From: Alphaproteobacteria bacterium
GTDB lineage: Bacteria > Pseudomonadota > Alphaproteobacteria > Bin95
Assembly: GCA_964291285.2 (NCBI GenBank)
Contig: OZ219786.1
Coordinates: 1,369,675-1,433,674 of the forward strand
DNA: 64,000 nucleotides
Direction of reading: 5' to 3'
Part shown: piece after piece, positions 10,514 through 45,175 of the stretch
Layout of the letters: each line of letters starts with the position of its first letter
Position numbering within the stretch: position 1 is the stretch's first letter
Notes under the pieces: model-generated
What the model was told of the DNA's origin: nothing
The model's database searches: none
The model's input: only the letters and a program-made list of their open reading frames with translations
Position numbers and translations under genes: made by a program

Positions 10514-10606
10514 GGCGGGCTAAGCCGACAAGATAGGCACAAGCACCACTCACGGTATTATGTAATCCCAAGTTCACTACTCTCTATCCGCCTGCCGCGG
10601 ATCCTA

Positions 10607-22877: not shown

Positions 22878-24816
22878 GAGAAATTTGCGCTGTGGGGTTT
22901 TTCCGGTCGGATGGGACGTTGGGTCCGGGTGTTGATGTTGTTTGTTCCGGCGTTCGAGGCGGTCGCCGCGGTTGCTTTTCGAACTTGAGCGGCCCAGCCC
23001 GGCAGCATCGCCGGCCTTCGGTCGCGTTTGTCCGTATGCCGGGGTCCGGCGGGTTGGGTCAGCGTTGTCGGCAGTCGGCTGAGGGGTCAGCCGGTATCGA
23101 GGTATGGCGCCGGGCCGACCAGGGAGCGCATGCGTGCGACGCGTCCGGCGCGGGCCTGTGCAAGCGCCATGGCCATCATGACCGCCAGGGCCAGCCCGAT
23201 GCGGGTCTTCATCTTCGCGCGTCCGCGGATGTAATGGGTCTCGAAGTTGAAGCTGCGGTCGAGGCGGGCGTTGATCCGCTCCATGGCGGTGCGCCGGTTG
23301 TATCCGCGCCGCCATGACGGGCTGCCCCAGGGCGTGGGCGTGAAGATACGCCGGTCATGGCTGTCGAGGTCGACGCGCAGGATGCGGCCGTATTCGCCGG
23401 ACTTCACCCCACCCGCCCGATGGCAGGCCCGGCGTCCCTTGCACTCGAAGCCGAAGGCGGCTGCGGGGCAGCGGTATTTGAGCGTGCCGCAGACGCCGCG
23501 CCCGACCTCGAACCCCTGGAAGGCCATGGCGCGGACCTCGCCGGTCTGCGGGCACACGCAGGACACCCGGCCGCGTTCGTCATGAACGATGACGTCGGCG
23601 CGCCCGGGGAACAGCGGTCGCGTGATCGGCCGGGCCGGGTCATGGCCCGGCTCCTTCTTCTCGACCCGCCACATCAGGCGCGTGTCGATCAGCGGGCGGA
23701 TATGCCACCTGTCCCACAGCCGCGCCTTCAGGCGGGCGTTGTCGAGACCGCGGTCGGCGCTGAAATCGGCGCAGCGCCCGGCCATCTCCGGCGCCTCGGC
23801 GAACAACTCCTCCAGCATCCCGGACAGCACCCCGGGTTCCGATGCCGACGCCCGCGTCACCTCGAAGGCCACAGGAACCTCGTGGTCCGTGTCGGCGATC
23901 AGGTGCAGCCCGTAGCCGAACCACGACTTCACCTTCTTCCACACCGCGCCGGTCTTCGCGTTCACCCCGCCCGTCTCGTGCCTGCCCCAGTCCGCATCGG
24001 GGTCCGAGGTCTGCCCCCTGGCCCCGGCAACCCGGCCCGTCGAGTGGCTCGCCACCGCCTTGCCGTCGTAGCCGAGATGGCGACCGAAGTCCGGCAACTC
24101 CTCGAACAGCGAGGCGCGCAGACGCCCGATCATCCCCGACACAAGGCCGCGCTCGTCCTCAAGGCGCACCACGCGCCCCAGGAACCGCGAGAAGTTCCAG
24201 GCGCCCGGCACCGTCGAGCGCAACGGCGCCGGACGCCTCACCGCGCGCCCTGCGCAAAGCGCCACCACCGGCGCACCCTGCAAGGGCAGCGCCTCGAACC
24301 CGCAAATCTCAAGCAATGCCGGGTTGCGGCCCAGCTCACGCAGCAGCGACTGCATCGAGGCATGCTGGAACACGATCCCCGCGATCAGAGCCCGCCACAT
24401 CGCCCGCACCGGGTAGTCGTTGCGACCCCGGCCTCGACCCGCCTCAAGCGCCGCCACAACCTTCTCGTCGGGAAGCGTGTCGAGCACCACACGCAGACGC
24501 TCAAGGTCCGCAAGGCCCTCCACAGACCACCACGAAAAGGCTAACTTCTCCGCTGTCGCCATCACGTTCTCCCAACCAGCGCCGGTGGATGGAACAAGGG
24601 CCGCAGGCCCGATGGCGACACCTTCTACTCAGTCCCGCGCCTCAACGCGACGCGCCCGAAAACCAGCCCGCGCACGGCCATGGGGTGGAAATCCACAAAA
24701 CCTTTCCCTCCAAACCGCAAAAACCCCGGAAATCAGCCATCCTGACGGGGTAAGAAAAATCCAGACCCTCCGCAATGCCTTGCTCAGAAAGCACTTCCAA
24801 ACAGCGCACACGCCTC
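22878..24816 (-). mobile_element. 1.94-kb IS (DUF772+DDE, IS1182/IS5-like), copy 1
   Basis: Imperfect IRs GAGAAATTTGCGCTGT / GAGGCGTGTGCGCTGT; flanked by AAGGC on both sides. Confidence 0.9.
23087..24565 (-). CDS. DDE transposase (492 aa)
   Basis: GRNDYPVRAM, YDGK, WFGYGLH, ADRGLD, RTAMERIN. Confidence 0.9.
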   Translation of the reverse strand: MMATAEKLAFSWWSVEGLADLERLRVVLDTLPDEKVVAALEAGRGRGRNDYPVRAMWRALIAGIVFQHASMQSLLRELGRNPALLEICGFEALPLQGAPVVALCAGRAVRRPAPLRSTVPGAWNFSRFLGRVVRLEDERGLVSGMIGRLRASLFEELPDFGRHLGYDGKAVASHSTGRVAGARGQTSDPDADWGRHETGGVNAKTGAVWKKVKSWFGYGLHLIADTDHEVPVAFEVTRASASEPGVLSGMLEELFAEAPEMAGRCADFSADRGLDNARLKARLWDRWHIRPLIDTRLMWRVEKKEPGHDPARPITRPLFPGRADVIVHDERGRVSCVCPQTGEVRAMAFQGFEVGRGVCGTLKYRCPAAAFGFECKGRRACHRAGGVKSGEYGRILRVDLDSHDRRIFTPTPWGSPSWRRGYNRRTAMERINARLDRSFNFETHYIRGRAKMKTRIGLALAVMMAMALAQARAGRVARMRSLVGPAPYLDTG

Positions 24817-26013
24817 AAGGCGAGAAATTTGCGCTGTGGGGTTTTTCCGGTCGGATGGGACGTTGGGTCCGGGTGGTGATGTTGTTTGTTCCGGCGTTCG
24901 AGGCGGTCGCCGCGGTTGATTTTCGAACTTGAGCGGCCCAGCCCGGCAGCATCGCCGGCCTTCGGTCGCGGGTGTCCGTATGCCGGGGTCCGGCGGGTTG
25001 GGTCAGCGTTGTCGGCAGTCGGCTGAGGGGTCAGCCGGTATCGAGGTATGGCGCCGGGCCGACCAGGGAGCGCATGCGTGCGACGCGTCCGGCGCGGGCC
25101 TGTGCAAGCGCCATGGCCATCATGACCGCCAGGGCCAGCCCGATGCGGGTCTTCATCTTCGCGCGTCCGCGGATGTAATGGGTCTCGAAGTTGAAGCTGC
25201 GGTCGAGGCGGGCGTTGATCCGCTCCATGGCGGTGCGCCGGTTGTATCCGCGCCGCCATGACGGGCTGCCCCAGGGCGTGGGCGTGAAGATACGCCGGTC
25301 ATGGCTGTCGAGGTCGACGCGCAGGATGCGGCCGTATTCGCCGGACTTCACCCCACCCGCCCGATGGCAGGCCCGGCGTCCCTTGCACTCGAAGCCGAAG
25401 GCGGCTGCGGGGCAGCGGTATTTGAGCGTGCCGCAGACGCCGCGCCCGACCTCGAACCCCTGGAAGGCCATGGCGCGGACCTCGCCGGTCTGCGGGCACA
25501 CGCAGGACACCCGGCCGCGTTCGTCATGAACGATGACGTCGGCGCGCCCGGGGAACAGCGGTCGCGTGATCGGCCGGGCCGGGTCATGGCCCGGCTCCTT
25601 CTTCTCCGCCCGCCACATCAGGCGCGTGTCGATCAGCGGGCGGATATGCCACCTGTCCCACAACCGCGCCTTCAGGCGGGCGTTGTCGAGACCGCGGTCG
25701 GCGCTGAAATCGGCGCAGCGCCCGGCCATCTCCGGCGCCTCGGCGAACAACTCCTCCAGCATCCCGGACAGCACCCCGGGTTCCGATGCCGACGCCCGCG
25801 TCACCTCGAAGGCCACAGGAACCTCGTGGTCCGTGTCGGCGATCAGGTGCAGCCCGTAGCCGAACCACGACTTCACCTTCTTCCACACCGCGCCCGCACC
25901 GGTGGGTGCTAACTACCTGACATAGCGTCGTTTTTTCTCCCGAAATGTAGCGGTCGGGGAAGCGGGTCGCAAGGGCCCGTTCCCCGGCTGCAACCGGAGC
26001 CGGGAGAAACGCA

Positions 26014-27138
26014 ATGGCGAAGACTACCCTCACCGAGGTCCGCGTGAAGGCGCTCAAGCCCCGCAGGTCCGTCCGCGAGGTCCGCGACGGCAGGCTCAGG
26101 GGGTTCGGCGTCCGTGTGTCGCCCTCGGGCCGCAAGCAGTTCTTCATCCACTGCCAGCATCGCGGCGTGCGCATCTGGAAGATCGTCGGCGACGCCGGGT
26201 CCATGAGCATCGGCGAGGCGCGGGCCGTGGCTGCGGACATGCTTGCCGCCATCAGGCGCGGCGGGGAGGCGCCGCCTGCGCCGGACGAGACGCTCTTCGA
26301 GGCCATCGCCGGGACGGTCTTCCGGCGGTATGAGCGCCTCTGGAAGGCCGGAACGCTCGCTGTCAACTGCAGCTATCTTCGCTGCCAGATCCTGCCGCAT
26401 TTCGCGGGACGGCAGGTCGCGGACATCGACCGGCAGGAGGTGCGCAACTGGTTCGCCCGTCTGCACGCGACGCCGGTGGCGGCGGACCGGTCCATGCCGG
26501 TGCTGTCCGTCATCATGAGGGAAGCGGAGGCCATGGGCCTGCGCCCGGAGGGTTCCAACCCCTGCCGGGGGATAAAGCGTTACCGCCGCAAGGGCCGCGA
26601 GCGGTTCCTCCCGGACGAGGAAATCCGCCGCCTGTCCGGGAGGCTCAAGGCGCATGAGGCCCGCTGGCCGCAGCATGTCGCCGTCATCCGCCTGCTGCTG
26701 CTGACCGGCTGCCGCAAGGGCGAGATCCTCACCCTGCAATGGTCCGACTACCGGGAAGGCCGCCTGTTTCTCCGCGACTCCAAGACGGGCCCCCGGACGG
26801 TCTGGCTCTCCGAACCGGCCCGGGCGGTGCTTGATCGTCTCGAGCGGAAGGGGCGGTGGATATTCCCCGCATCTCGGGGCGACCGGCCCCGGAGCGGAAG
26901 CTGGCTGGACCACTTCTGGCGCAGGGTCCGCGCCGAGGCGGACCTGGAGGACGCCCGCCTTCACGATTTGCGTCATACGCATGCGAGCCTTGCCCTCCGG
27001 CAGGGCGTGACGGTGCTCGCCATCGGCCGGCTGCTGGGCCACCGCAGGCCGGAAACCACGCTGAAATATACCCATGTCGCCGACGCCATGGTGCAGGACG
27101 CAGCCGAGACGGTCGGCGCCGTGCTGGAGGCAGACTGA
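26014..27138 (+). CDS. Tyrosine integrase A
   Basis: Arm domain RDGRLRGFGVRV; TGCRKGE, DSKTG, HDLRH, LLGH, TLKY. Confidence 0.93.
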   Translation: MAKTTLTEVRVKALKPRRSVREVRDGRLRGFGVRVSPSGRKQFFIHCQHRGVRIWKIVGDAGSMSIGEARAVAADMLAAIRRGGEAPPAPDETLFEAIAGTVFRRYERLWKAGTLAVNCSYLRCQILPHFAGRQVADIDRQEVRNWFARLHATPVAADRSMPVLSVIMREAEAMGLRPEGSNPCRGIKRYRRKGRERFLPDEEIRRLSGRLKAHEARWPQHVAVIRLLLLTGCRKGEILTLQWSDYREGRLFLRDSKTGPRTVWLSEPARAVLDRLERKGRWIFPASRGDRPRSGSWLDHFWRRVRAEADLEDARLHDLRHTHASLALRQGVTVLAIGRLLGHRRPETTLKYTHVADAMVQDAAETVGAVLEAD

Positions 27139-28283
27139 TGGCGGGCCGGGAACGGATGAAATTCACCGACGCCGCCGTCGCCCGTCTCCGCCCCCGCGAG
27201 CGGGAATATACGGTCTGGGACACGCGCATCGCCGGCCTCGGCGTCCGGGTGCGGCCCACCGGCGGGCGCAGCTGGGTGCTGCTGCTCGACAGCGGCGGGC
27301 GCACCAGGCGCGTCTCGCTCGGCCCGGTTGGCGTGAAGAGCGCCGCCGAAGCCCGCCGGGAGGCTCTCGAGCGCCAGGCGGCCCCGCAGCCGGAGGAGAC
27401 AGCCGCGCCGCCCGGCGCGGCCCCGCTGTTCCGGGATTTCGTCGCGGGTTCGTGGAAGCAGGCACACTTCGACCGCTACAAGCCGTCGGGCCAGCAAACC
27501 GCGTCCGGAATACTCCGGCGACAATTGCTTCCCGCATTCGGTCCGAAGCCGCTCGACCGCATTACGCCGGGCCATGTCCGGCAGTGGTTCGACCGCTACA
27601 GCCGGACCGCACCCGGCGGCGCCAACCGCGCTTTCACCCTCCTTCACCAGATCATGAACTTCGCCCTCGCCTGCGGTCATGTCGAGGTCAATCCGGCCAG
27701 GCACATGAGAAGGAACCGCCGCCCGGCACTCACACGGTTCCTGTCCCGGGAGGAACTTGCCCGCCTTCATGCCGCCCTGAACGCGCAGACCCGGCAGGGT
27801 GCGCGGCGGCAGGCCGACATTATCCGCCTCCTGCTGCTGACCGGCTGCCGCAGAAGCGAGATCACGGGCCTCGGCTGGTCGGAAGTCCGCGAGGACGGGC
27901 TGGCGCTCACCGATGCCAAGACCGGACCGAGAACGGTTCCACTCAACAGACAGGCCCGCGCTATCCTCTACCGGCAGACGCGCACGGGCAGCGCGTTCGT
28001 GTTTCCCTCGCCGCGCGACCCCGCCCGCCCGCGCAGCCCGGACCTGCCCCTCTGGTACCGCGTCAGACGCGAAGCCGGGATCGGGGATGTCCGCCTCCAC
28101 GACCTGCGCCATACCATGGCCAGCCATGCCGTCATGAACGGCGTGCCCGTCCCGGTGGTCTCCCGCCTGCTCGGACATTCCGATGTGCGCATGACGCTGC
28201 GCTACGCCCATATCGCCGACCGCGACATCGAGGCCGCCGCGGAACGCGTCGGGCAGGCCATGAACGCCGTGCTGGAGACCTGA
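27138..28283 (+). CDS. Tyrosine integrase B
   Basis: TGATG overlap with integrase A; WDTRIAGLGVRV; TGCRRSE, DAKTG, HDLRH, LLGH, TLRY. Confidence 0.93.
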   Translation: MAGRERMKFTDAAVARLRPREREYTVWDTRIAGLGVRVRPTGGRSWVLLLDSGGRTRRVSLGPVGVKSAAEARREALERQAAPQPEETAAPPGAAPLFRDFVAGSWKQAHFDRYKPSGQQTASGILRRQLLPAFGPKPLDRITPGHVRQWFDRYSRTAPGGANRAFTLLHQIMNFALACGHVEVNPARHMRRNRRPALTRFLSREELARLHAALNAQTRQGARRQADIIRLLLLTGCRRSEITGLGWSEVREDGLALTDAKTGPRTVPLNRQARAILYRQTRTGSAFVFPSPRDPARPRSPDLPLWYRVRREAGIGDVRLHDLRHTMASHAVMNGVPVPVVSRLLGHSDVRMTLRYAHIADRDIEAAAERVGQAMNAVLET

Positions 28284-28297
28284 CGCGCCACTACCGG

Positions 28298-28399
28298 GCG
28301 TTCTCCTGCCATCGCAGCGCGCCGTGCAACACGGGGCTGTCTCGGGAGCCGGACCCGGCCGGTGCACGCCCTCGAGGCCGAGGGAGAGCCCCGCGCCCA
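28298..28399. repeat. Degenerate ~100-bp copy of the autotransporter 3' end (29284-29386)
   Basis: Manual alignment shows about 9 substitutions and 1 indel. Confidence 0.85.
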
Positions 28400-28450
28400 G
28401 ATGGTGCGAATGGCGCGCAACGGCGCTCTCGATGTAGCAGTCCAGCAGAC

Positions 28451-29260
28451 TCAATTCCTGTTGAAGCCGAATTCCCCGCGCGATTGCAGAACCCGCTTCC
28501 AGTGCGTTTCGCGTTCGACAATCATGGCGTCGGCAATACGGGCGGTATGGCTTTCCAGAAGCAAAAACCGGAAATGCTTCCGGCAATGGTCCAGACCGCG
28601 ATTCCCGAGCAATTCCTTCAGGTCGGCATTGTTGCCATGTCCGGTCGCGCTGTATTCGCGCCAACGAGACCAGACGCCGCCGTCGCCGTAGGCCGCCCCG
28701 ACATACAGCCGCCCCGTTCCCGTATCGGTGATCAGATAAACGCCCTTTGCGTTCTCCAGGGCGCCGCGCCAATCGGGCCGGTCGTTGCGGATGAGCGATC
28801 CGAGCTCGCCGAAACCGATGTCGATCCGGTCATGGCCCGGAAAATCGATCCCGGAATACTCCTCCTTGAGAATTTCGCTTACCGTGAATTCGTCCAGGCG
28901 TTTCTCGAAATCCACGCGGGTTGCCCGTTGGCGCCAGGGAGAATGCAGTTTGAGGCGTCCGATGAAGCTGCGGCCCTGTTCGGTCAGGGATACGGCGTAT
29001 CTGTCCGGCAGCCGCTCCACGACTTCCCACACACCGCCGAACAACCAGATGTCAGGCTCCCGATGGAAATCGATCACCGAGAAGATATACCGGCGGTTGA
29101 AATCGTTGTTTTTCGGTCGATGCTCCTGCCAGCCTTGCCATTCTTCCCGGCTGCGAACGAAAACGTCGAGCGGTTGATTGCGCTTGTTGTAGCGGGCGAA
29201 GTGCAGCTTGTAGAGAGCCGGCTCCCGTATCGGCCAAATGTCGGTGAGATGAATCACCAT
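28451..29260 (-). CDS. GIY-YIG nuclease family protein
   Basis: GVYLITD...LYVGAAYG.GG.WSRW.EY...ERETHWK...FNRN. Confidence 0.85.
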   Translation of the reverse strand: MVIHLTDIWPIREPALYKLHFARYNKRNQPLDVFVRSREEWQGWQEHRPKNNDFNRRYIFSVIDFHREPDIWLFGGVWEVVERLPDRYAVSLTEQGRSFIGRLKLHSPWRQRATRVDFEKRLDEFTVSEILKEEYSGIDFPGHDRIDIGFGELGSLIRNDRPDWRGALENAKGVYLITDTGTGRLYVGAAYGDGGVWSRWREYSATGHGNNADLKELLGNRGLDHCRKHFRFLLLESHTARIADAMIVERETHWKRVLQSRGEFGFNRN

Positions 29261-29291
29261 ACGCCCTCAGCCGAGCCGGGCCTGCGTTCTT

Positions 29292-32200
29292 CTACCATCG
29301 CAGCGCGCCGCGCAGCATGAGGCTGTCTTCGGGAGCCGGGCCCGGACGGTGCGCGCCCTCGAGGCCGAGGGAGAGCCCCGCGCCCATGCGGTAGCGCGCG
29401 CCGAGCCGCAGGGTGCGCCCGCCCGTCTCCGCCAGGCTGAGGCCCGCCCAGGGGGTGAGCACCGCCAGCGGCCCCGGACCGGGCAGGCCGAACCCGTGGC
29501 CCACCTCCGCCTCCAGGCGGCTCTCCGCCCCTTCCGGCGCCGTGCTGTCCGCCGCCGCGGGCAGGCCGTGGTCGAACAGCCGGTCCAGGCCGCTCTCAGT
29601 GCGCCCGTGCGCGGGACCGAAGGCGAGGAACGTCCCGCGCCCGTCCGCTCCGGGATCGAGGCGCACCAGCGCGCTCACGCCCCATTCGTCGCGGTCCGCC
29701 TCATGCGCCGCCAGGAGCCGCGCGCGCAACTCCGCCGTCAGGCCCGCCGCCGGGTCATGCCATGTCACGCCCGCCCCGGCCTCGAGGCCCGCCCCTTCGC
29801 CAACGTCGCCGCCGTCATGGCGCACCCCCGCCTCCAGAGCCGGCGTCAGCGTCGCGCCGCCCGCCAGCGCGTGCTCGTACGATCCCTCCAGCAGCAGCCG
29901 CAGCCGCGTCGTCCTCGCCGTCAGCCCCGCCAGGCCGTCATCGGACCCCGTGCGCAGGCGCGCCGCCGAACCCTCGCCCTTCACCGCAAGGCGCGTCATC
30001 CCGCCCGCGATGAGCTCCGCATCCTCGACCAGGACGCTGCGCCCGCCCGCCGCCGCGCTCCACTGCGTCAGGTCCGCACTGCGCGAAGGCGCGCCCTCCT
30101 CGGCAATCCGCACCTCGCCGGTCCCGTAGCCGAGGCTCGCCCACAGGGTCGAGCCGTCCGGCAGCAGCCACGCCGCATAGGGGTGCACCGACGTGATCGT
30201 GGTCTCGTGCACGCCCTTCACCCGGCCGGCGGCGCCGGTCGTCCGCGTGTCCAGCTCGCCCCGCGCATGGGAGAGCGCCGCCCCCGCCAGAAGGTCCGGG
30301 CGCACCCGCACATCCGCCCCCAGCTGCGCCGACCACAGGCCGCCGTCCCAGGTGACATCCTTCTCCGAACCCGACAGCGACAGCCACTCGCCCCGGCCCC
30401 ATACCGCCAACGGCGGCGCCTCGTCCTCTCCGGCGCCCGCCGCCAGCGTGAAGGACGCCCCGTCCAGTATCTCGCTCAGCGTCGGACCGGGTTCCTCCGG
30501 GCGCGGCGGCACGGCCCGGGCGGACCGGGCATACCCGACCGGCGACGACGGCAGGGCGCCGAACCGCAGCGAACTGCCCGGCCTGCCGGACGCCGCCGCC
30601 TCGATGCGGTCCGTCACCGCCCCCAGCGTCCGCGACATCGCCGCCGCCGCCACATGCGGCAGCACCGCCGCATTCACCCGGTTCGCCCGTGACACGGACC
30701 CCGCCGCCCGGTCGCGCAGCACGCCCGCAGCCGTCGCGTCGCTCCCCACCGCGTAGCCCGCACCATCGTTCAGCGTGATGCGGTAGGCTTCCGCCCCTTC
30801 CGTATCCGCATCGGCCGCCGTCGGGATCGTCACCACCCCCGTGGTGCGCCCCGCGGCGCCGAACACCGCGTCGAACGAACGCGGCCCCAGCCCGCCCGGA
30901 ACGTCCCCGGCATCGAAGCCGCTCGCGTTGCGCGCCGACAGCGTCAGGCTGACCGTCAGGCTGCCCGTCAGCGCCCGGTCGGCGGTCACCGCGAGGCGGA
31001 TGTCGTCGCCCTCGGTCACCGCCGCAGGATCCTGCGCCAGCGTCAGCACCGGCAACAGCGTCGTGTCCGTCACCGTCACCGCCACCGGATCGATCGACAC
31101 CGGACCGTAGCCGCCGCCCGAGGCGCCGTGCGTCAGCGTCGCCGTGTCGTCGGTCGTGTCCTCGTCACGGGCCGCGCGCACCGTCACCGTCTGCGCCGTG
31201 TCCCAGTCGGTCGTGGTGAAGGTCAGGCTGGCCGGTTCCACCGTCACGTCGCCCGAGGCGCCGCCCACCGTCACCGTGACATCGCCCGAGGGTTCGGTGT
31301 CCAGCACCACCGTGTAGGCGGCGCTGCTGCCCTCCGCGACCGTCAGCGCGGTCGGCGTCACCGTCACGCTTCCGTCTGAAGCAGGGGTCGTACTGCCGCC
31401 GCCTCCGGAAGCCGCCGCCACCGTCACCCGCGCCGGCGCATCCGGGCCGGCGCCGGGGCCGGCCGCGTTCACCGCGCGTACCTCGAACTGGTACGTGCCG
31501 CCGGCCAGCCCGCTCACCTCGTGGCGGGTGGTGCCCGCACCGGAGCCGGGAATGTCCTCCCACTCGCCCCAAGCGGCGCTGCCGGTCTTCCGCCGCACCT
31601 GCCACTTCGTGACCGTGGGGTTCGCCAGGTCGGTCCAGGTCAGCGTCACCGAACCGGCGCCCGCCGCGCCGGCAAGACCGGTCGGCTTCGCCGGCGCCAC
31701 GCCGCTGTCCACCACGCTCACCACCACATCGGCGATGCTCACCGAGCCGTAACCGCCGCCAGACGCGCCGTGCGTCAGCGTCGCCGTGTCGTCGGTCGTG
31801 TCCGTGTCCGTGCCCGCGTTCACCGTCACCGTCTGCGGGACGGTCCAGTTCGAAGTCGTGAAGGTCAGCGGCGAGCCTGTCACCGTCACGTCGCCCGACG
31901 CGCCGCCCACCGTCACCGTCACATCGGCCGACGGCACCGTGTCCAGCCGCACCGTGTAGCTGCCGGAGCCGCCCTCAGCCACCCGCAGCGCCGCCGTCGA
32001 TACCGTCACGCCGGGCACCGTCGGCGCCAGCGGCGTCGCCGTCGCCCAGCCCGTCCCGGCACCATCGCCCGCAGGGTTCACCGCGCGCAGCCGGAAGCTG
32101 TATTCGCTGCCGTTCTCCAGGCCCGTCACCGTGTGGGTCGTCGTGGTGGCGCCCGCACCCGGAATCGCCGTCCAGGCCGCGCTTGCCCTGACGCCCGTCT

Positions 32201-35200
32201 TGCCGTGGCCCAGCTCGTAGCCGGTGATGCTCGCATTGTCCGGGTCGGTCCAGGTCAGCACCACCTGCCCGTTACCCGCCGCCGCGGCCAGTCCCGTCGG
32301 CGCCGCCGGCAGCGAAACCGACTCGGTCACGCTCACCACCACGTTGCCGATCGAAACCGGGCCGTAGCCCCCGCCCGACGCGCTGTGCGTCAGCGTCACG
32401 TCGGGGTCCGTGTCCGCGTCCGGGTCCAGGGCGGCGTTCACCGTCACCGTCTGCGCCGTGCTCCAGTTGTTCACCGCAAACCGCAACTGCGAATCCGGCA
32501 CCGTCACGTCGCCCGACGCGCCGCCCACCGTCACCACCACCTCTCCCGAAGGCTGCGTGTCCAGCTTCACCGTGTAGGTCCCGGTCCCCCCTTCATCCAC
32601 CGTCAGCGTGCCGGACGACACCGTAACCCCCTTCGTGTCGTCCTCCGTCACCGTCACCACCACACTGTCGACCGAAACCGAGCCGTAGCCCCCGCCCGAC
32701 GCGCTGTGGGTCAGCGTCACATCGGGGTCCGTGTCCCCGTCCGGGTCCTGCGCCGCGCTCACCGTCACCGTCTGCGCCGTGCCGTAGCTGGTTGTCGTGA
32801 AGGTCAGGCTCGGCGGGCTCACCGTCACGTCGCCCGACGCGCCGCCCACCGTCACCGTCACGTCCGACGAAGGCGCCGTGCTCAGCTTCACCGTGTAGGT
32901 CCCGTTCGCTCCTTCCGCCACCGTCAGCGCCGACTTCGAAACCACCACCCCCACCGGCGTCGCCGTCACCTCGTCCGACCACACCGACTGAACGGCCGCC
33001 CCGCCGCTGCCGCGCCGGGCGAACAGCCGGAACGTGTAGGCCGTCCCGTTCGTCAGCCCCGTCACCGTCGCGCTCGTCGCACTGCCCGAGACCGTCCGGG
33101 TCGCGCCCCAGCTGCCGGCCCCGCTCTTGTACTGATAACCCCAGGTCGAGACATTCGCCTGCGCGCCCCAGCTCAGGGTGACCGAGCCGTCGCCCGCCGC
33201 CGCCGTGAGGACCGGCTTCGCCGGCTTCGCTGTCGTCGCCGAGGGCGTCGCCGTCTTCCAGTCGGTGGCGGCGCCGTCGCCGGCGGCGTTCACCGCGCGC
33301 AGCTTGAAGCTGTATTCGGCATCGTTGTCCAGACCCGTCACCGTGTGGGTCACGGTGGTAGCGCCCGAATCCGGTATGGCGACCCACGCCGCGCTTGCCC
33401 TGACGCCCGTCTTGGCGTGGCGCAGCTTGTAGCCGGTGATGCTCGCATTGTTCGGGTCGGTCCACGACAGTACCGCCTGACCGTTGCCCGCCGACGCCGT
33501 CAATCCCGCCGGCTTCGGCGGAACCTGACCCCCGCCCGAACCCACCGTCACCGACACCGTCCCCGCATCCGGGATGAACGTCTTCGAGGCCCCCGTCAGC
33601 GTGAACGCATGGTTGATCACCGCCGTCCCCGCCGCCACCCCGGTCACCGTCACCGCCTGCGCCACGTTGTAGTCGCTCGTCGTGAACGTCAGGCTCGACG
33701 GACTTACCCTCGCCTTGTCCGCCGCCGAACTCGACAGCGCAAGAGTGCCCGCAAATGCCCGGTTCAGCTTCACCGTGTATGTCGCCGTCGCTCCCGGCGA
33801 AACCGTCACCGGCGCATCCGCGAACGTCAGCGCCGGCCTGTCCGGCCTGTTGGTCGTCAACTCGATCACATTGGAATCCGGGCCGTTCAGGCTGAAGAGG
33901 CCGCCGCCGACAAACCGAGACCCGATCGGCTGGACGTAATATTCATATACCTCGCCGTGCAACGACCCCGAACCTGACCATTGCCGGGTACCGGCGCCGC
34001 CCGTGTGGCTCGGCCCGCGCCATGATGTACTCCCCCTGTTCCGGTAATACGCGTACCAAAAGCCGATGACATCGGCGTTGATGACGATCCTGTGCGGGCC
34101 GCCGGAGGTCGTCGTCCAGGTGAGATTATGCGCGCCGTTGGCGCCCGCCGCGCCCGTCAGCACCGCCGCAACCGCAGCCCCCGGCGTGGCCGTCTGTTCC
34201 GCCGACGCCGTACCGTTGCCGGCATCGCTCACCGCCCGAAGCTTGAACGCATAGGCCGTGTCGTTGGTCAGACCCGTCACTTCGGCGTATGCCTTCGCCG
34301 CTGTGGAACCCGGAATCGCCGTCCACGAGCCGTAACTTCCGGCCCCCGCCTTCCGCTGATACTCCCAGCCGGTGATGCTGGCGTCGTCCGGGTCGGTCCA
34401 GGTCAGCCATACCTTCGTGTTGCCCGGAGACACCGCGAACCCCGCCGGCGCAGCCGGCACGGGAGACGCCTCGGTGGTCGCGCTCCGCTCCCCGGAGGCC
34501 GCGCCGGCGCCGGCCGCATTCCTCGCCCGGATCCGGAACGTGTAGGCCGTGCCGGCCTTCAGGCCCGTCACCACATGGCCGATGGTTGTCGCCGTCGAAC
34601 CCGGAACCGCCCTCCACGCGCCGTAACTCCCGGTGCCCTCCTTGTACTGGTATTCCCAACCGGTGATGCTGGCGTCGTTCGGATTGGCCCACGCAAGCGT
34701 GACCCGATCCGAGGCCGGCAGGGCGGCAGTCAGGGTCGGCTGGCCCGGAACCTGCACGACGGTATAGGTGGTCTCCGTCTGCGCTTCCGTCGCCGCCGTG
34801 CCGTCATGGCCCTTCCAGTGCCAGCGGACAGTATGGACGCCGACGCCCAGCGAGGCGCAGGGATACAGGTTCTGGCCGCGTCCCGTCCGCACGCCGGCGA
34901 TATTGCTCGAGACCCGGACACCGTGGGTGCCGTGCGACAGCGCCGAATGCGCGGCCTTGGGCGTCCTGCCGGGGCGCGACTCCAGATAGGTCGAGGTGGC
35001 CGTCGTGACCGCAAGAAGGTTGAAACACGCCTGCACCGTCCCGCCGGACGGCACGGCCAGGGTCCGGCTCGGCGTGGAGACCAGCGTCGGGGTCTCCGCC
35101 CGCGGCGTGGCTTCGGCCCAGCCCCTGTTGGCGATGACGTTGGTATGCTGATTGCCGGTGTTCGATTCGTGGGCCACAAGCTGGTAGGAGTACTTCTTGC

Positions 35201-35963
35201 CGTTGGTCGTCGACAGGCTGAAACTGGCCGTGTGCTGGTTGGCGTCGTGCTTTATCGAACCGACCACTCCCGGGGTACCGCTGCCCAATGTGTACCAACC
35301 ATAGGTAATACCGTCCACGACCCACCGGATGGACCAGCGCACGACAGGATTGCCCAAGCCGCTGACCGAGGCGCTGATATCCACCCAGCCGTCGTTCGCA
35401 GTCGCCGTGACGCTGACCGTGCCGGGGGTGACCGCCGTGGGCGTCGCGGTGACTGCGTTGGAAATGAAGACGATATCCGGTGTGCCCGGGATCGGGTTGT
35501 CGTAGTGGATAGCGACCTGGAAGGTGTATTCGCTGCCGTTGTCCAGACCCGTCACGGTGTGCGTTCGAATGGTCCCCGCGCCAGAAATCCTCTGCCAATT
35601 ACCGTAGCTTCCCGTACCCTTCTTCTGCCGATACCGCCAAGGATTCGGATCCAAGTCAGAGTCCAAAGTCAAGGCCCAGTTCAGCGTCACCTGCCCGTTG
35701 CCCGGCGTGGCGGTCAGGGTGGTGCCTGATTGCGCTTGCGCGTCCTGGGGCGCGAGGGCGGCGGCCAGCGTGATGAGGAAGAGGGCAGCGAGTCCCGCCT
35801 TCAGGCGGCGGGCGGTTCTCCCGGGGGCGCCCACCGGCTCAGCCCCGCGCCCTGACTCTTGAGGGGGGGGGGGTACAACGAGTTCGGGTTCGCGCGCGCG
35901 TGAGGCGCCCCGCCCGAAGAGCCGCAGGTCATGCATCCCGATATCGCCCGGCATCCGCGTCAT
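29292..35963 (-). CDS. Large autotransporter adhesin with fibronectin type III and Ig/Calx-like repeats
   Basis: GGAGG RBS; extended signal peptide ending AQA; multiple Fn3 units (LTWTDP..ASITG..Y..AY.FKLRAVN); C-terminal beta-barrel ending LRW. Confidence 0.9.
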   Translation of the reverse strand: MTRMPGDIGMHDLRLFGRGASRAREPELVVPPPPQESGRGAEPVGAPGRTARRLKAGLAALFLITLAAALAPQDAQAQSGTTLTATPGNGQVTLNWALTLDSDLDPNPWRYRQKKGTGSYGNWQRISGAGTIRTHTVTGLDNGSEYTFQVAIHYDNPIPGTPDIVFISNAVTATPTAVTPGTVSVTATANDGWVDISASVSGLGNPVVRWSIRWVVDGITYGWYTLGSGTPGVVGSIKHDANQHTASFSLSTTNGKKYSYQLVAHESNTGNQHTNVIANRGWAEATPRAETPTLVSTPSRTLAVPSGGTVQACFNLLAVTTATSTYLESRPGRTPKAAHSALSHGTHGVRVSSNIAGVRTGRGQNLYPCASLGVGVHTVRWHWKGHDGTAATEAQTETTYTVVQVPGQPTLTAALPASDRVTLAWANPNDASITGWEYQYKEGTGSYGAWRAVPGSTATTIGHVVTGLKAGTAYTFRIRARNAAGAGAASGERSATTEASPVPAAPAGFAVSPGNTKVWLTWTDPDDASITGWEYQRKAGAGSYGSWTAIPGSTAAKAYAEVTGLTNDTAYAFKLRAVSDAGNGTASAEQTATPGAAVAAVLTGAAGANGAHNLTWTTTSGGPHRIVINADVIGFWYAYYRNRGSTSWRGPSHTGGAGTRQWSGSGSLHGEVYEYYVQPIGSRFVGGGLFSLNGPDSNVIELTTNRPDRPALTFADAPVTVSPGATATYTVKLNRAFAGTLALSSSAADKARVSPSSLTFTTSDYNVAQAVTVTGVAAGTAVINHAFTLTGASKTFIPDAGTVSVTVGSGGGQVPPKPAGLTASAGNGQAVLSWTDPNNASITGYKLRHAKTGVRASAAWVAIPDSGATTVTHTVTGLDNDAEYSFKLRAVNAAGDGAATDWKTATPSATTAKPAKPVLTAAAGDGSVTLSWGAQANVSTWGYQYKSGAGSWGATRTVSGSATSATVTGLTNGTAYTFRLFARRGSGGAAVQSVWSDEVTATPVGVVVSKSALTVAEGANGTYTVKLSTAPSSDVTVTVGGASGDVTVSPPSLTFTTTSYGTAQTVTVSAAQDPDGDTDPDVTLTHSASGGGYGSVSVDSVVVTVTEDDTKGVTVSSGTLTVDEGGTGTYTVKLDTQPSGEVVVTVGGASGDVTVPDSQLRFAVNNWSTAQTVTVNAALDPDADTDPDVTLTHSASGGGYGPVSIGNVVVSVTESVSLPAAPTGLAAAAGNGQVVLTWTDPDNASITGYELGHGKTGVRASAAWTAIPGAGATTTTHTVTGLENGSEYSFRLRAVNPAGDGAGTGWATATPLAPTVPGVTVSTAALRVAEGGSGSYTVRLDTVPSADVTVTVGGASGDVTVTGSPLTFTTSNWTVPQTVTVNAGTDTDTTDDTATLTHGASGGGYGSVSIADVVVSVVDSGVAPAKPTGLAGAAGAGSVTLTWTDLANPTVTKWQVRRKTGSAAWGEWEDIPGSGAGTTRHEVSGLAGGTYQFEVRAVNAAGPGAGPDAPARVTVAAASGGGGSTTPASDGSVTVTPTALTVAEGSSAAYTVVLDTEPSGDVTVTVGGASGDVTVEPASLTFTTTDWDTAQTVTVRAARDEDTTDDTATLTHGASGGGYGPVSIDPVAVTVTDTTLLPVLTLAQDPAAVTEGDDIRLAVTADRALTGSLTVSLTLSARNASGFDAGDVPGGLGPRSFDAVFGAAGRTTGVVTIPTAADADTEGAEAYRITLNDGAGYAVGSDATAAGVLRDRAAGSVSRANRVNAAVLPHVAAAAMSRTLGAVTDRIEAAASGRPGSSLRFGALPSSPVGYARSARAVPPRPEEPGPTLSEILDGASFTLAAGAGEDEAPPLAVWGRGEWLSLSGSEKDVTWDGGLWSAQLGADVRVRPDLLAGAALSHARGELDTRTTGAAGRVKGVHETTITSVHPYAAWLLPDGSTLWASLGYGTGEVRIAEEGAPSRSADLTQWSAAAGGRSVLVEDAELIAGGMTRLAVKGEGSAARLRTGSDDGLAGLTARTTRLRLLLEGSYEHALAGGATLTPALEAGVRHDGGDVGEGAGLEAGAGVTWHDPAAGLTAELRARLLAAHEADRDEWGVSALVRLDPGADGRGTFLAFGPAHGRTESGLDRLFDHGLPAAADSTAPEGAESRLEAEVGHGFGLPGPGPLAVLTPWAGLSLAETGGRTLRLGARYRMGAGLSLGLEGAHRPGPAPEDSLMLRGALRW
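35863..35873 (-). repeat. C11 homopolymer tract in the autotransporter 5' coding region
   Basis: G11 on the + strand, encodes VPPPPQ. Confidence 0.85.
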
Positions 35964-36175
35964 GACCTCATCCTCCCGTCCCTGATTCCAAGCCCGCGCC
36001 GCGCCCGCACGGCCGCAGCGAACCCGCCGGTGCAACCCATAACCCGTCCGCAGGCCGGTTTCAACACGCGCCGCGCCCGACAGCCCGGCAGCCGGACATC
36101 CTGCCATCGGCAAGCGCTTCCGGAACCGACCGGCGTGCAGCGCAGGGTGGGCGAACCAGCCTTGCCATGACCGCC

Positions 36176-36559
36176 TCAGGGCTGCGGCGCGGGGCCGCCC
36201 TCCGGATCGGCGCTGACCGAGACCGCCTGCCAGCGCGCCGCCGCGCCGGGATCGGTCAGACGGTCCAGGTCGCCCTCACGGGAGAGCCAAGCATCGACAG
36301 CATCGCCGAGAGCGGTCCAGCGGTCCCCAAGGTCGAGGTCCTCCATGCGCTCCTGCTCGATCTTTGCCAGCACCAGCAGTTCGCGCACCGCGCGCCGCAT
36401 GACGACGGCCGGCACCGCCTCCGCCATGATGGCCCGGTGAACGATGTAGCGCGATATTTCCATGCCCGCCTCGTCGGCAAGCTCCCTGATGCGCGCCCAC
36501 TCGTTCGCGGTCGCCATCACCGCATGCTGCGTGCGGCGGCCCCCCGGAGCCCGGCTCAT
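36176..36559 (-). CDS. RHH/MobC-like small DNA-binding protein
   Basis: QHAVMATANEWARIRELADEAGMEISRYI. Confidence 0.65.
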   Translation of the reverse strand: MSRAPGGRRTQHAVMATANEWARIRELADEAGMEISRYIVHRAIMAEAVPAVVMRRAVRELLVLAKIEQERMEDLDLGDRWTALGDAVDAWLSREGDLDRLTDPGAAARWQAVSVSADPEGGPAPQP

Positions 36560-39500
36560 GACAACGCCGCCGGACCTGCCGCAGCCATCAGAATTCCGTG
36601 CTTTACCAGCAAAGGTGCTTGCATTTCTCCCATATCAATTATCATATTCATCCTCTCACAGGTTGATTTGGTGCATCACCACGATGGTCGTGACTTTTTT
36701 CGTGCCAGAAACGCATTCATGCATCAGGCTACCCTCAATGCCCCCCGGAAACAATGCGTTGTCACTGTTTTACTTCCCCCAGTGCCACTATCGCGTTCAT
36801 GACCTTCCTGTAAGTCAGTCGGATTTCGTGCCAATGCCTCTTGCCATGCCCGGAAATATACTGTATTCAAGCCCCCTTCATGGGAGGAATGCGACCCTCT
36901 GTCAGATAGTGCCCTAACTCGAAAAATTACGTTCGGATTTTACACCGCGCCGGTCTTCGCGTTCACCCCGCCCGTCTCGTGCCTGCCCCAGTCCGCATCG
37001 GGGTCCGAGGTCTGCCCCCTGGCCCCGGCAACCCGGCCCGTCGAGTGGCTCGCCACCGCCTTGCCGTCGTAGCCGAGATGGCGACCGAAGTCCGGCAACT
37101 CCTCGAACAGCGAGGCGCGCAGACGCCCGATCATCCCCGACACAAGGCCGCGCTCGTCCTCAAGGCGCACCACGCGCCCCAGGAACCGCGAGAAGTTCCA
37201 GGCGCCCGGCACCGTCGAGCGCAACGGCGCCGGACGCCTCACCGCGCGCCCTGCGCAAAGCGCCACCACCGGCGCACCCTGCAAGGGCAGCGCCTCGAAC
37301 CCGCAAATCTCAAGCAATGCCGGGTTGCGGCCCAGCTCACGCAGCAGCGACTGCATCGAGGCATGCTGGAACACGATCCCCGCGATCAGAGCCCGCCACA
37401 TCGCCCGCACCGGGTAGTCGTTGCGACCCCGGCCTCGACCCGCCTCAAGCGCCGCCACAACCTTCTCGTCGGGAAGCGTGTCGAGCACCACACGCAGACG
37501 CTCAAGGTCCGCAAGGCCCTCCACAGACCACCACGAAAAGGCTAACTTCTCCGCTGTCGCCATCACGTTCTCCCAACCAGCGCCGGTGGATGGAACAAGG
37601 GCCGCAGGCCCGATGGCGACACCTTCTACTCAGTCCCGCGCCTCAACGCGACGCGCCCGAAAACCAGCCCGCGCACGGCCATGGGGTGGAAATCCACAAA
37701 ACCTTTCCCTCCAAACCGCAAAAACCCCGGAAATCAGCCATCCTGACGGGGTAAGAAAAATCCAGACCCTCCGCAATGCCTTGCTCAGAAAGAACTTCCA
37801 AACAGCGCACACGCCTCAAGGCGTCCCGCCCGACTTGCGCAAAGCGGCCCTCGAAGTTGCCGGTTGCGATTCGGAGTTGTTGGCCATTGTTGATCAGCTA
37901 TCGGACCCGCCCCAACCGGAATGGAAGATCGAGGAGGAAAGGAACCGGGTAGAGTGCGAAGCCGAACGGCAACGGATGTTCCAGTCTCACCGCGACGCCC
38001 TTGCGAAGTGGGCCGGGGAAATCTCGGCGGGGGCTATCGGCGTCCTGGTGGAGCCGGCCAACGTCTATCTCGGTCGAAGACGCATCCATGTTCGGCAGCA
38101 CGCTTCGGATGGCGAGCCGTCTACCCAGGATATGATGCGTGAATATCTGGGCGGAGATCTGGCGGAACGGGTCATGGCCGGCTTCATCGCTGCCCTCGGT
38201 CGCGGCGACCTTCCGACAGCCTCGTCGATCGCGGAAGTCCACTGCGAGAGCAAGCATTGGCCAGCCGAAGCCGTGATGATCTGCGGTGTCCAGGAATTGC
38301 TTCGCCGCGGACAACCGATCCGCGCCATAGACCGGAACACCCTTGCGGCCGTCTACATGGCCTGGCAACGAGCGCCGGTGAACGGGCGAAGAGACGGGAG
38401 CGACCTCGGTACGGCGCTCGAAGGGGTGCTGTTCGAGAGCGATGCCGATTGGGAAGACCATTTCCAGACGAGCATCGAACCCCAACTGGCCGCAGATCTG
38501 TACCATGTCCACGAACTGGACCGCCTGACAACCGATTCCGATCTTGCCGGCCTGGCGGGCCGGCTCGCCGTGGACTGGCTGTGCCGATATCCGGCATTGC
38601 ATTATTCGACGCAGAAGAAGCTGCTCGCCTGCGCACTTGATTGCGCCGAAAAGCTTGATTGCGCCGAAAAGAAAGCCCTGCACGCGCTGATCCTCGATCG
38701 GCAGTCTGCCGTTTATCCCGACCGCCAAACGACGCTGCTGTGGCTGTCTGCGGACTATGCCGTCGACTTCGAAAGCCGCCGCGACACGCTTCTTGAGGTT
38801 GCGGCGAATGAACCGAAGCTGATCTGGCTCATCCGGGACCGTATCGCCCCGGAGCGGCATGGCTGGTCCGAGTTTTCCCTTTCCCAGCTCTCCTACATCG
38901 TCGAGGCCTTCGGCCAGCAATGGCCCTGGAGGGAACCTCCCGTCTCATACATGGGCCTTGAGAACCCATGGGACGCGACCGGGTTCATCCAATACGCCAT
39001 CGAAACAATCGGCGGCCGACCGACCCCCGAAGCCACCGAGGTCTTGCACATGCTGATTGCGGAGGACCACGCGCCGACCTATGCCGACAGGATGAAGCAC
39101 ATGCTTCACCTGCAGCGCCGCGCCCGGCGCGACTCCGAATATTCCGCGCCCACCATCGCCGAGTTCCGTGCGGTGGTGTCCCGGGCCCCGCCGGAGAATG
39201 TCGACGACATGCGCGCCTGGTTCGCAGATCGCCTCGAAAAATTCCGGAGCGGAATTCGTGGCAGCGACACAAACATGTGGGAAGCGTACTGGAATGACAC
39301 CGGCGAACCCAGGGTCGAGACATTCTGCCGGGACCGACTGATCGAACACGTCTCCAGGCTGTTGCCGGAGTCGATCCGCTTCGGACCGGAAGCGCTCATG
39401 CCCGGCCGGAAGCGTGCAGACATCGCGCTAACCCGAAACGCGATGAAGCTGCCAATCGAAATCAAGGGGCAGTGGGAAAGGAATGTGTGGAATGCTGTCA

Positions 39501-42746: not shown

Positions 42747-43531
42747 CAGTAGAATTGCTCGCCCGGCTCGCGCCTGCGCACAACTGCCTTGCCGCCGGGC
42801 GCCTTGTCCGTCTTCGTCCTGTCCGGGCGGCTTTCGGGATCGGCGGGGGCCGTTTTGGCCGGGACTGCGGCATCGCCGGCCGGTTCCGCGCTCTCCGGCG
42901 ACGGCAGGCCCGGCGCCCGTGCCGGCGGCAACGATTCCCGATGCATTGCGGACCGCCCGGCGTCGCCGCCGCCCCCCGACAGCCGCTCGACCTCGGCAGG
43001 GGACACCAACAGCACGCCGACCCTGCCGCTCCGGCGGGCGAGCGCCGCGATCAGTTCGCCGTCGCTCCACCCGTCCGGGTGCTCCGTCCGGCCCGCGTAT
43101 CCGGGCCGGGCCCGCGGCGCCGGCTCCACGACCGTCCCGCGCCCGCCCACGAACCGCCGCAGGCGCACCGCGACCCCCACCCCTATCCACATCCCGAACA
43201 GGGCAAGCCCGGTGCACGCGCCCAGCACCGCGCGATCCGCCGTCAGGGAGAGTATCTTTCGGCGGGCCCACCACGCCTCGTCCATGACATGGGCGAGTGT
43301 ATAACGTTCTACAGTAACGGCTTCGCCGGCCGCCGTGCGGTAATCGACAACCCCGTAGTCGCTGAAGCCGGCGGTCAGCATGGCTTCGACAAGCGTGAAC
43401 TTCCAGGCCGCGTACCAGTCGTGCCCGGTCGTGCCGAGCGCAAGCGCGAGACCGGCGACCAGCACCGCCATGCCGGCGGCGCAGACCCCGGCCACCGCCA
43501 GCGGCATCAGCCATATGTCTCTGTCAGGCAT
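42746..43531 (-). CDS. Two-TM membrane protein resembling a coupling-protein (TraD/TrwB) N-terminus, without ATPase domain
   Basis: Two hydrophobic segments; occupies the trwB position, TGATG-coupled to the relaxase; no Walker A. Confidence 0.5.
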   Translation of the reverse strand: MPDRDIWLMPLAVAGVCAAGMAVLVAGLALALGTTGHDWYAAWKFTLVEAMLTAGFSDYGVVDYRTAAGEAVTVERYTLAHVMDEAWWARRKILSLTADRAVLGACTGLALFGMWIGVGVAVRLRRFVGGRGTVVEPAPRARPGYAGRTEHPDGWSDGELIAALARRSGRVGVLLVSPAEVERLSGGGGDAGRSAMHRESLPPARAPGLPSPESAEPAGDAAVPAKTAPADPESRPDRTKTDKAPGGKAVVRRREPGEQFY

Positions 43532-44320: not shown

Positions 44321-44716
44321 GCGGAGACAGATAGGGGCAGCGGAGGGGTACGCAAACCGCTTTCGGTATGGCAATTCCTGCGTTTCATACCCCTGGCGCC
44401 GCATGGTGCCGCATGCCGCATCAGGGCGATGAAAAAAACTGGACCGGCGCCCCGAACGGTCCGGTGTGTCGATAGGGAAACTGGTTCGCCGCCTGAAACC
44501 GCCCGAAGTCTCTGCGCGGCATTCCGGGGATAAGCACGGCATCAAGCTTCCACCCCCGCAGCGTGGCGGCTACAGGCCGCCGACAGGCGCCGCGCGGAGT
44601 GCCGGGCATTTCGCCGGGTGCGGAACAGCAGGCGTTGACCCGCCGATGAGATGTGCCAAGCTGCAACGCACCCCTCGGCGACGAGTGGACGGCGGCCGGG
44701 AAAGAGAAGAGCATCC

Positions 44717-45157: not shown

Positions 45158-45175
45158 ATGGGGATTATATGCAAT

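Follow-up and report, generated by a model that had tools for sequence, protein, structure and literature searches.

The insert and its empty site

We analysed a stretch of 64,000 nucleotides from an alphaproteobacterial genome of 6.1 Mb (assembly GCA_964291285.2, contig OZ219786.1, positions 1,369,675 to 1,433,674), hereafter the window, in which one of three copies of a 1,940-bp insertion sequence (IS) is split by an 11-kb insert that begins with two adjacent tyrosine integrase genes, here called IntA and IntB. The features that define the insert and its target are listed below in window coordinates.

22878..24817, minus strand: intact IS copy 1, empty-site reference, in tandem with copy 2 with AGGC between them
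24822..25894, minus strand: left half of IS copy 2 (IS positions 1-1073), 99% identical to the intact copies
25031-25888, within the left IS half: C-terminal part of the split transposase open reading frame (ORF)
25885..25894, plus strand: left direct repeat ACACCGCGCC, crossover region attL, from the junction alignment
25895..25927, plus strand: left terminus, made of C, the hairpin GCACC-GGTG-GGTGC (25896-25909), then TAACTACCTGACATAGCG
25912-25922: ACTACCTGACA, inverted partner of 36900-36910
36560..36941, no strand: right-end non-coding arm, conserved in 14 right ends
36900-36910, inside the right-end arm: inverted repeat TGTCAGATAGT
36919-36941, inside the right-end arm: terminal palindromic stretch
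36942..36951, plus strand: right direct repeat ACACCGCGCC, attR, from the junction alignment
36942..37818, minus strand: right half of IS copy 2 (IS positions 1064-1940)
36940-37566, within the right IS half: N-terminal part of the split transposase ORF
45175..47114, plus strand: intact IS copy 3, inverted, second empty-site reference

Four occurrences of the decamer ACACCGCGCC were counted in the window, at 23941, 25885, 36942 and 46042 (the last on the minus strand), where 0.53 would be expected; three of them are position 1064-1073 of the three IS copies, and the fourth is the duplicate at the distal end of the insert. When attL, attR and the two intact IS copies are aligned, the junctions are clean: the IS is colinear until ...TTCCACACCGCGCC and picks up again at ACACCGCGCCGGTCTTCG beyond the insert, which occupies 25895-36941 (11,047 bp), and the two IS copies without insert provide the empty site within the window itself. 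A preliminary description of this DNA had proposed exactly such an insert of 11,047 bp between two copies of ACACCGCGCC, precisely splitting IS copy 2, and the junction alignment and the two empty sites bear it out: we are dealing with a mobile element in its own right, whose ends are precise. It holds five genes, coding for IntA, IntB, a GIY-YIG-like protein, a giant Fn3 autotransporter and a ribbon-helix-helix (RHH) protein, and the absence of relaxase, replication and phage genes claimed for it also held, in that profile searches of the five genes gave no relaxase, replication or phage-structural match. No credible small ORF was found in the right-end arm (36560-36941).

A coupled pair of arm-type integrases

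The integrase genes lie immediately behind the left terminus.

26014..27138, plus strand: IntA, arm-type tyrosine integrase of 374 amino acids (Pfam Arm-DNA-bind_3 and Phage_integrase)
27138..28283, plus strand: IntB, arm-type tyrosine integrase of 381 amino acids (Arm-DNA-bind_3 and Phage_integrase), its start overlapping the IntA stop (TGATG)

IntA and IntB are 40% identical (E 4e-65), each has arm-binding, core and catalytic domains, and the catalytic set is complete in both (R234, K257, H317-x-x-R320, H343 and Y352 in IntA numbering), so that by Pfam domains and catalytic residues IntA and IntB are each an arm-type (lambda/P4-like) tyrosine integrase. The overlap, the domains and the residues are as first described, that is, two coupled paralogues that keep R-K-HxxR-H-Y. 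The search of genomes and metagenome-assembled genomes (MAGs) for adjacent pairs that had been suggested as a check was carried out and returned pairs in the genome of the window, in foreign loci and in plasmids. By tblastn with both integrases, the genome of the window contains 38 intact adjacent pairs and about seven broken ones, which fall into four subfamilies in which the upstream gene is always IntA-like; the element's own subfamily numbers 17 intact pairs, and IntB has 112 matches in its own genome at E 1e-10 or better. Across the 38 pairs, the pairwise identities of IntA and those of IntB are correlated with r = 0.988, and the median ratio of nonsynonymous to synonymous substitution rates (dN/dS) across the genome's pairs is 0.27 for IntA and 0.30 for IntB. 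These comparisons argue that both integrases are under purifying selection and that IntA and IntB form a conserved, co-inherited and translationally coupled pair.

Of 16 further genomes belonging to the genus, 15 have relatives of IntB, and so does one of eight genomes from the two sister genera. Among public contigs, an IntA relative stands immediately upstream at 27 of the 29 loci with a full-length IntB relative, the exceptions being L032 and L034; the contigs that carry IntB relatives are mostly alphaproteobacterial MAGs, and their isolate names would seem to be sponge-derived, the lineage being probably sponge-associated. As regards plasmids, IntB matches at least two places in 28 of the 30 best plasmid records, and each of the five plasmids inspected, from Shewanella baltica, S. 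oneidensis MR-1, Photobacterium damselae, Paracoccus versutus and Tritonibacter, has an adjacent integrase pair, whose genes overlap by 4 or 10 bp in four of them and are about 100 bp apart, as annotated, in S. baltica. The cargo behind the pair differs in each of the five. A quick maximum-likelihood tree has two halves that mirror each other, the upstream members of the plasmid pairs falling beside IntA and the downstream members beside IntB; one small subfamily of the window's genome is an exception. A comparison of two related Shewanella plasmids disclosed no clear direct repeats; they share the pair and a distal segment of 550 bp and differ in cargo. Finally, in a sample of 301 genomes of the class, 39 have an IntA match at E 1e-45 or better and at least four beyond the window's own have adjacent pairs, a search that scored six candidates per genome and gives no frequency of pairs. 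Taken together, the phylogeny and the distribution suggest an old origin and a wide distribution of the integrase pair, which is also found on plasmids of Shewanella, Photobacterium, Paracoccus and Tritonibacter.

Some further observations concern the same proteins. Two contigs labelled Chloroflexi and Dehalococcoidia (L037 and L043) contain short stretches with 78-79% identity to IntB, which could be due to mis-binning or to an exchange between phyla that live in the same habitat. A third integrase type, encoded at 11593-12780 (plus strand) of the window and 28-29% identical to IntA and IntB, has seven identical-scoring copies in the genome and is found 5.9 kb upstream of a subfamily-3 pair at three other places. 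With 38 intact integrase pairs and 21 TrwC-domain matches, the mobilome of this genome is exceptional for 6.1 Mb.

A family of elements with shared ends

The termini of the insert recur throughout the genome, in which 18 left ends match it by the hairpin motif and 14 right ends were found; 17 of the 18 occurrences of the left-end motif stand 93-119 bp upstream of an IntA gene. Paired ends delimit elements of 8.2, 8.2, 10.1, 10.1, 11.0, 21.6, 36.3 and 38.7 kb, and the direct repeats vary between these elements (ACACCGCGCC, ACACCCCTGAA, ACACCACGGC, ACACCTTCCA and others). Every left end consists of the flank, ACACC, five to six variable bases, C, GCACC-N4-GGTGC, TAACTATCTGACATAGCG and a run of T, with IntA about 100 bp further on, an architecture seen in the 18 genome copies, in a second subfamily and at 26 loci in other genomes with freely differing hairpin loops. 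Every right end has TGTCAGATAGT, which pairs as an inverted repeat with ACTATCTGACA at the left end, and after it a short palindrome and GATTT ahead of ACACC. In other genomes, a pattern search within 10 kb downstream of IntB did not find the right-end motif, so that no complete element could be delimited outside this genome.

With about 30 copies of this IS and dozens of related elements in the genome (the IS alone has matches at 41 places, about 20 of them full-length), and with public sequencing runs that yielded short contigs, one may ask whether the junctions are an artefact of assembling a repeat-rich genome. We regard this as highly improbable, given that the assembly consists of five contigs, that the same end architecture stands at the 18 left ends here and at the 26 loci elsewhere with different flanks, and that the 10-bp repeat lies exactly at both junctions. 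The idea of two independent elements in tandem was also considered, and was ruled out by the single set of ends and by the conserved overlap and order of the integrase genes.

Target site and crossover

Since ACACCGCGCC belongs to the target in the window, ACACC is a requirement of the target and the repeat marks the crossover region. The left flanks of foreign loci have ACACC at the same offset in 26 of 28 cases, the remaining two reading TCACC and AAACC. Two copies in the genome are particularly informative: they are 99.86% identical over 7,229 bp (10 mismatches), lie on different contigs and have different repeats, namely ACACCAG[C/A]GAG and ACACCCG[A/G]GAG, each with one mismatch within the pair of repeats and at the same third variable position. 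At a divergence of 0.14%, these mismatches are unlikely to come from mutation. Lambda-type integrases are known to tolerate a mismatch in the centre of the overlap. We read the mismatches as a sign of conservative recombination through an overlap of about 7 bp that tolerates a central mismatch, whereas a duplication made by staggered cuts would leave none. Closely related copies tend to share their variable bases (GCGCC in the four closest, ACGGC in another group), which suggests lineage-specific target addresses that drift. The IS, which could have been taken for a special target, is an incidental one, insertion presumably occurring wherever ACACC and a matching short overlap are found.

One may also ask whether the 11-kb copy still moves by itself, or is instead a relic carried by the IS or shuffled by homologous recombination among copies. 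The same junction is seen at the same IS position in three or four other places, some of them without the matching other end, which shows recombination or rearrangement between copies, and the 11-kb copy is devoid of a relaxase. Nevertheless, both integrase genes, both ends and the RHH gene are intact in this copy, the IS halves at the other junctions are 93-99% identical to the reference IS, and near-identical siblings occupy different sites, so we hold a relic to be quite improbable.

Cargo of this copy and of its siblings

The remainder of the insert is occupied by the following features.

28298..28399, no strand: copy of the 3' end of the autotransporter gene, about 100 bp (repeat families D16 and D18, 87-95% identical to 29284-29386)
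28451..29260, minus strand: cargo gene for a protein of 269 amino acids with a GIY-YIG-like C-terminal domain
29292..36113, minus strand: giant Fn3-repeat autotransporter, putative adhesin, 2273 amino acids from the first TTG and 2223 from the ATG at 35963
36176..36559, minus strand: NikA-like RHH protein of 127 amino acids (Pfam PF21983, 27.8 bits against a cut-off of 27)

The giant ORF has six Fn3 stretches and internal repeats, and its last 402 amino acids match the Pfam Autotransporter domain (PF03797, 42.5 bits against a cut-off of 26), which places a C-terminal beta-barrel after the passenger as in type Va autotransporters, the signal peptide being judged by eye. The reading of this gene as an Fn3 autotransporter of 2223 amino acids is thereby confirmed, that length corresponding to the ATG start. 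The neighbouring gene had been called a GIY-YIG nuclease, an assignment that is tentative: the ESM Atlas gives 0.98 to GIY-YIG clusters of 273-291 amino acids, while the Pfam (E 0.013) and NCBIfam (E 0.0023) matches are under their curated cut-offs. A 75%-identical copy of this gene lies behind an integrase pair at locus L017. It sits between the two copies, of about 100 bp each, of the autotransporter end (28298-28399 and 29284-29386, 87-95% identical), and the autotransporter occurs in sibling copies that have no nuclease gene. Either the nuclease gene seems to have entered together with, or next to, a duplicated end of the autotransporter gene, or an autotransporter formerly present at this place seems to have disappeared. 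The terminal RHH gene, reported from the start, scores above the Pfam cut-off for the NikA-like family, and its closest ESM Atlas clusters are NikA-like at 0.92. Copies of it adjoin the right ends of siblings at L056, L061 and L062, and its segment is 87-94% identical to eight other places of the genome, and it is a conserved backbone gene of the right end.

The cargo of the siblings was surveyed with Pfam on 66 ORFs from ten sibling regions. A 36-kb sibling (E3, C1:412420-448755) encodes a TrwC relaxase of 1,726 amino acids, two NikA-like RHH proteins, ARPP-1, RTX proteins and an Fn3 giant; a 10-kb sibling, which occupies the same IS site, lacks the adhesin and encodes ARPP-1 and two RHH proteins in addition to an IS; the two 8.2-kb siblings examined carry SLAM, a protein of 596 amino acids and a porin; and the 39-kb sibling carries RTX proteins together with an ABC/HlyD exporter (type I secretion) and a type I restriction-modification system. 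A pair of subfamily 2 (L065) is accompanied by the same GIY-like gene, an Fn3 autotransporter and TrwC. The preliminary description had seen in the insert an element class dedicated to surface proteins; this has to be given up, as other copies carry RTX and type I secretion, SLAM and porin, restriction-modification, ARPP-1 and IS genes. The cargo of the family is general and not specific to surface proteins.

Relaxases and a candidate origin of transfer

The TrwC of the 36-kb sibling is 32% identical to that of R388 over 935 amino acids (E 8e-110), and its relaxase domain is 41-43% identical to the MobF relaxases of many plasmids. A second TrwC match, of identical score, stands roughly 6 kb away from another right end, that of C4:305275; this end occupies the identical position in another copy of this IS. 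TrwC-domain matches number 21 in the genome, one of them in the window. The supposition of a relaxase-free class consequently fails, siblings in the same genome carrying TrwC/MOBF and two NikA-like RHH genes. It is because of these TrwC and NikA-like genes that the family falls under the integrative mobilizable elements (IMEs). A module of its own for integration and excision, with defined ends, is present in the form of two integrases, a 10-bp repeat and an empty site; as to the origin of transfer (oriT) and relaxase, the present copy has no relaxase, a NikA-like RHH protein and an R388-like hairpin, TrwC being found in siblings. The family is best read as integrative mobilizable elements, and the 11-kb copy as a reduced, relaxase-less derivative.

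25895..25927: candidate oriT (R388 IR2/nic-like) and/or integrase binding site, from sequence likeness

The oriT of R388 reads GCGCACC-GAAA-GGTGCG followed by TATTGTCTATAGCC, and the left end of the element reads CGCACC-GGTG-GGTGC-TAACTACCTGAC-ATAGCG. It is tempting to hypothesize that the left end includes an oriT that would be completed only on the excised circle, and that the relaxase-less copy would depend on its siblings for transfer, a proposal for which we see about as much reason to believe as to doubt. Relaxase-made junctions were considered as well; they are ruled out by boundaries that lie outside the nick-like site and by a copy that has no relaxase.

Surroundings of the insert

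In its intact form (23087-24565, minus strand), the split transposase ORF encodes 492 amino acids with DDE_Tnp_1 and DUF772 domains and a weak match to IS1182. IS copies 1 and 2 lie head to tail with AGGC before, between and after both, and are a tandem IS dimer at one insertion site; the match of copy 3 to the right half of copy 2 extends 27 bp outward, to 45148. In contigs of two public runs, a link of 12-13 other letters connects the IS end (37817/37818) with the IS start (24830), which fits further tandem or circular forms of the IS. Beyond the right junction lie a relaxase gene and a gene upstream of it.

39759-43514, minus strand: TrwC/MOBF relaxase of 1,251 amino acids, 2.8 kb past the right junction, between IS copies 2 and 3
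43565-44545: HTH_17 protein, upstream of the window's TrwC

This relaxase is 43% identical to that of the sibling element, and the IS cluster of the window probably lies within yet another mobilizable element. Exact direct repeats elsewhere in the window measure 300 bp (6754-7053 and 10604-10903) and 112 bp (7522-7633 and 50704-50815).

Discussion

We consider it likely that the insert belongs, as a single copy, to a large family of integrative elements with a life cycle that can be outlined as follows. On the circular form, the backbone would be a single block made of a TrwC-type relaxase (in some copies), one or more NikA-like RHH genes, the AT-rich arm, ACACC-N5/6, the GCACC-N4-GGTGC hairpin, IntA and IntB, with the cargo between IntB and the relaxase/RHH end. 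IntA and IntB, which we infer to act as a heteromer, would jointly cut out the element as a circle and insert it again through conservative tyrosine recombination; ACAC(C), the left half-site, would be recognised by protein, and the overlap of about 7 bp would have to match the element's own except near its centre. Such an overlap would amount to a short, drifting address of each lineage, and the family would spread like a transposon. The hairpin and the ...TGAC/ATAGCG that follows would be an oriT of the R388 type, whose connection with the arm on the RHH side would exist on the circle alone; transfer would therefore come after excision. The 11-kb copy would have lost its relaxase and, to pass from one cell to another, would need the relaxase of a sibling as well as a type IV secretion system already resident in the cell; its passengers would be the GIY-YIG-like gene and the Fn3 autotransporter.

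Several observations weigh against this explanation. Several left and right ends have no partner, which leaves room for rearrangement or assembly errors among the copies, and in E8, a copy with paired ends, the two repeats disagree at more than one position. The likeness to oriT comes down to a 12-base identity of the stem and five bases, ATAGC, with a spacer of 12 nt in place of the 8 nt of R388; the left-end hairpin folds no better than shuffled sequence (z -0.68), its stem never shows a compensatory change, and the right end holds an inverted match to part of the putative nic region, for which an integrase site is an equally good fit. No sequence similarity was detected between the RHH protein and TrwA of R388. 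The Pfam VirB4 model (PF03135) has no match in the genome; in favour of mobilisation, on the other hand, the VirB4-like model TIGR00929 has two matches below cut-off, and TrwB-type coupling proteins occur elsewhere in the genome. Short contigs from the public reads contain no circle junction or excision product, the intact IS copies masking the empty site. These reads come from one study with three runs, contain about half of the element's sampled words and gave short contigs over 24830-37900 whose loose ends at 25894 and 36942 continue into the IS, as expected from the other intact IS copies; they neither support nor oppose excision.

The need for both integrases is likewise a matter of inference, as one of them could be regulatory or serve a different reaction. 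In the downstream integrase of the Paracoccus versutus plasmid pTAV1 (L054:11983-13164), LHDLGHT replaces the LHDLRHT of all others, the second catalytic arginine having become glycine. Most integrative islands have one integrase and a small directionality factor, and since no Xis- or AlpA-like small gene was found here, one of the paralogues might fill that role. One integrase would then be the recombinase and the other an accessory with a part in directionality, architecture or regulation, or an enzyme that acts at another site (for example, in multimer resolution). This arrangement, which the Paracoccus protein would suit, seems unlikely to us, because both integrases keep all catalytic residues and the arm and core domains, both are under similar purifying selection, and the pairs of alpha- and gammaproteobacteria alike preserve the gene order and the coupling. 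Hence we keep to joint action of IntA and IntB. A further-reaching version, which is tentative and which we would rather doubt than assert, is that coupled arm-type pairs are an obligate two-protein recombinase defining a widespread class of proteobacterial mobilizable islands; these would be addressed by a 4-5-bp motif read by protein and by an overlap checked by homology, which would drift through tolerated mismatches at its centre, so that the elements would multiply like transposons. Their oriT would come together only upon circularisation, the crossover site separating the RHH-bound arm from the nick hairpin, and in the present, probably sponge-associated lineage they would have expanded to dozens of copies per genome and would shuttle host-facing surface and defence genes.

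If the pair is one recombinase with a short drifting address, it would become clear how an island that relies on integrases can attain the copy numbers of a transposon, and this would give a name to a cargo vehicle found on plasmids of cultured marine and soil Proteobacteria. The cargo of the present lineage (Fn3 autotransporters, RTX proteins, SLAM and porin, restriction) consists of genes that shape the contact with host and phages. A short programmable attachment site that is partly read by homology would, if true, also be of practical interest for integrase tools.

Comparison with known systems

The recombinases of Tn554, SE, GInt and RIT elements are not known to have arm-binding domains. 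By the account given in PMC10214605, these systems, built of TnpA/B/C in Tn554, IntA/Tfp/IntB/Srap in SE, GinA-D in GInt and RitA-C in RIT, resemble our family in being transposon-like and in having several tyrosine recombinases, and SE and Tn554 carry a short flank-derived footprint between sites; the SEs and GInts are counted there as putatively non-mobilizable. They need a third or fourth protein, whereas two arm-type integrases, an RHH protein and relaxase-bearing members are found here. Tn554, by the same source (PMC10214605), has TnpA, a large TnpB and TnpC and makes no target duplication; here the integrases are of equal size and arm-type, no third gene follows and the repeat is 10 bp. 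RIT, GInt and SE have three recombinase-fold genes in a row; here there are two, and the next gene is GIY-YIG-like and on the opposite strand. The equivalog models of XerC and XerD give 42-77 bits against cut-offs of about 330, and both integrases have Arm-DNA-bind_3. Model scores and parts lists therefore uphold the view that the pair is built differently from Tn554, RIT and XerC/D, and the same applies to SE, GInt and the islands considered next.

Gamma-Mobile-Trio (GMT) islands, defined by GmtY, GmtZ (Phage_Integr_2) and GmtX, resemble our family in having a multi-protein tyrosine-recombinase module at the 5' border, variable defensive or offensive cargo, several islands per genome on chromosomes and plasmids, and possible intragenic insertion (10.1101/2023.03.28.534373). 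Unlike them, our family has no GmtX-like gene after the pair, an RHH gene at the far end and a MOBF relaxase in siblings. By the NCBIfam models of GMT, IntB reaches 24.7 bits against a GmtZ cut-off of 600, and neither IntA nor the plasmid pairs gave a match. Closer in one respect are ICEPmu1 and ICEMh1 of Pasteurellaceae, in which an adjacent 'XerCD-like' recombinase pair is presumed to act jointly at a direct-repeat site (PMC6861422); as there described, they are full conjugative elements inserted at tRNA-Leu, and it is by this description that they are set apart from our family. Paired integrases on an island are accordingly not unprecedented. In the full-text literature, to the extent of the text that it makes accessible and leaving aside the supplements of the GMT and tyrosine-recombinase classification papers, we found no published description or name for elements with paired arm-type integrases. 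The suggestion of a possibly undescribed class of cargo element is to that extent sustained, and is to be amended by removing its relaxase-free and surface-protein-dedicated parts.

For transfer, the nearest model is R388 and the MOBF systems: a sibling has a TrwC homologue, the CGCACC-N4-GGTGC stem followed by ATAGC stands at the element's left end, and on the circle the RHH gene would face the hairpin as trwA faces oriT in R388, whereas the spacer to ATAGC is 12 nt versus 8 and the RHH protein is not detectably TrwA-like. In overall organisation, the family is most reminiscent of IMEs and islands with P4-type (Arm-DNA-bind_3/DUF4102) integrases, with which it shares an integrase module at one end, short junction repeats, variable cargo and the absence of mating-pore genes, some members having a relaxase of their own and an RHH accessory protein. 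It departs from them by two coupled paralogous integrases in place of one integrase and Xis, by a 5-bp motif and a short variable overlap in place of a tRNA or a single gene as target, and by dozens of copies per genome.

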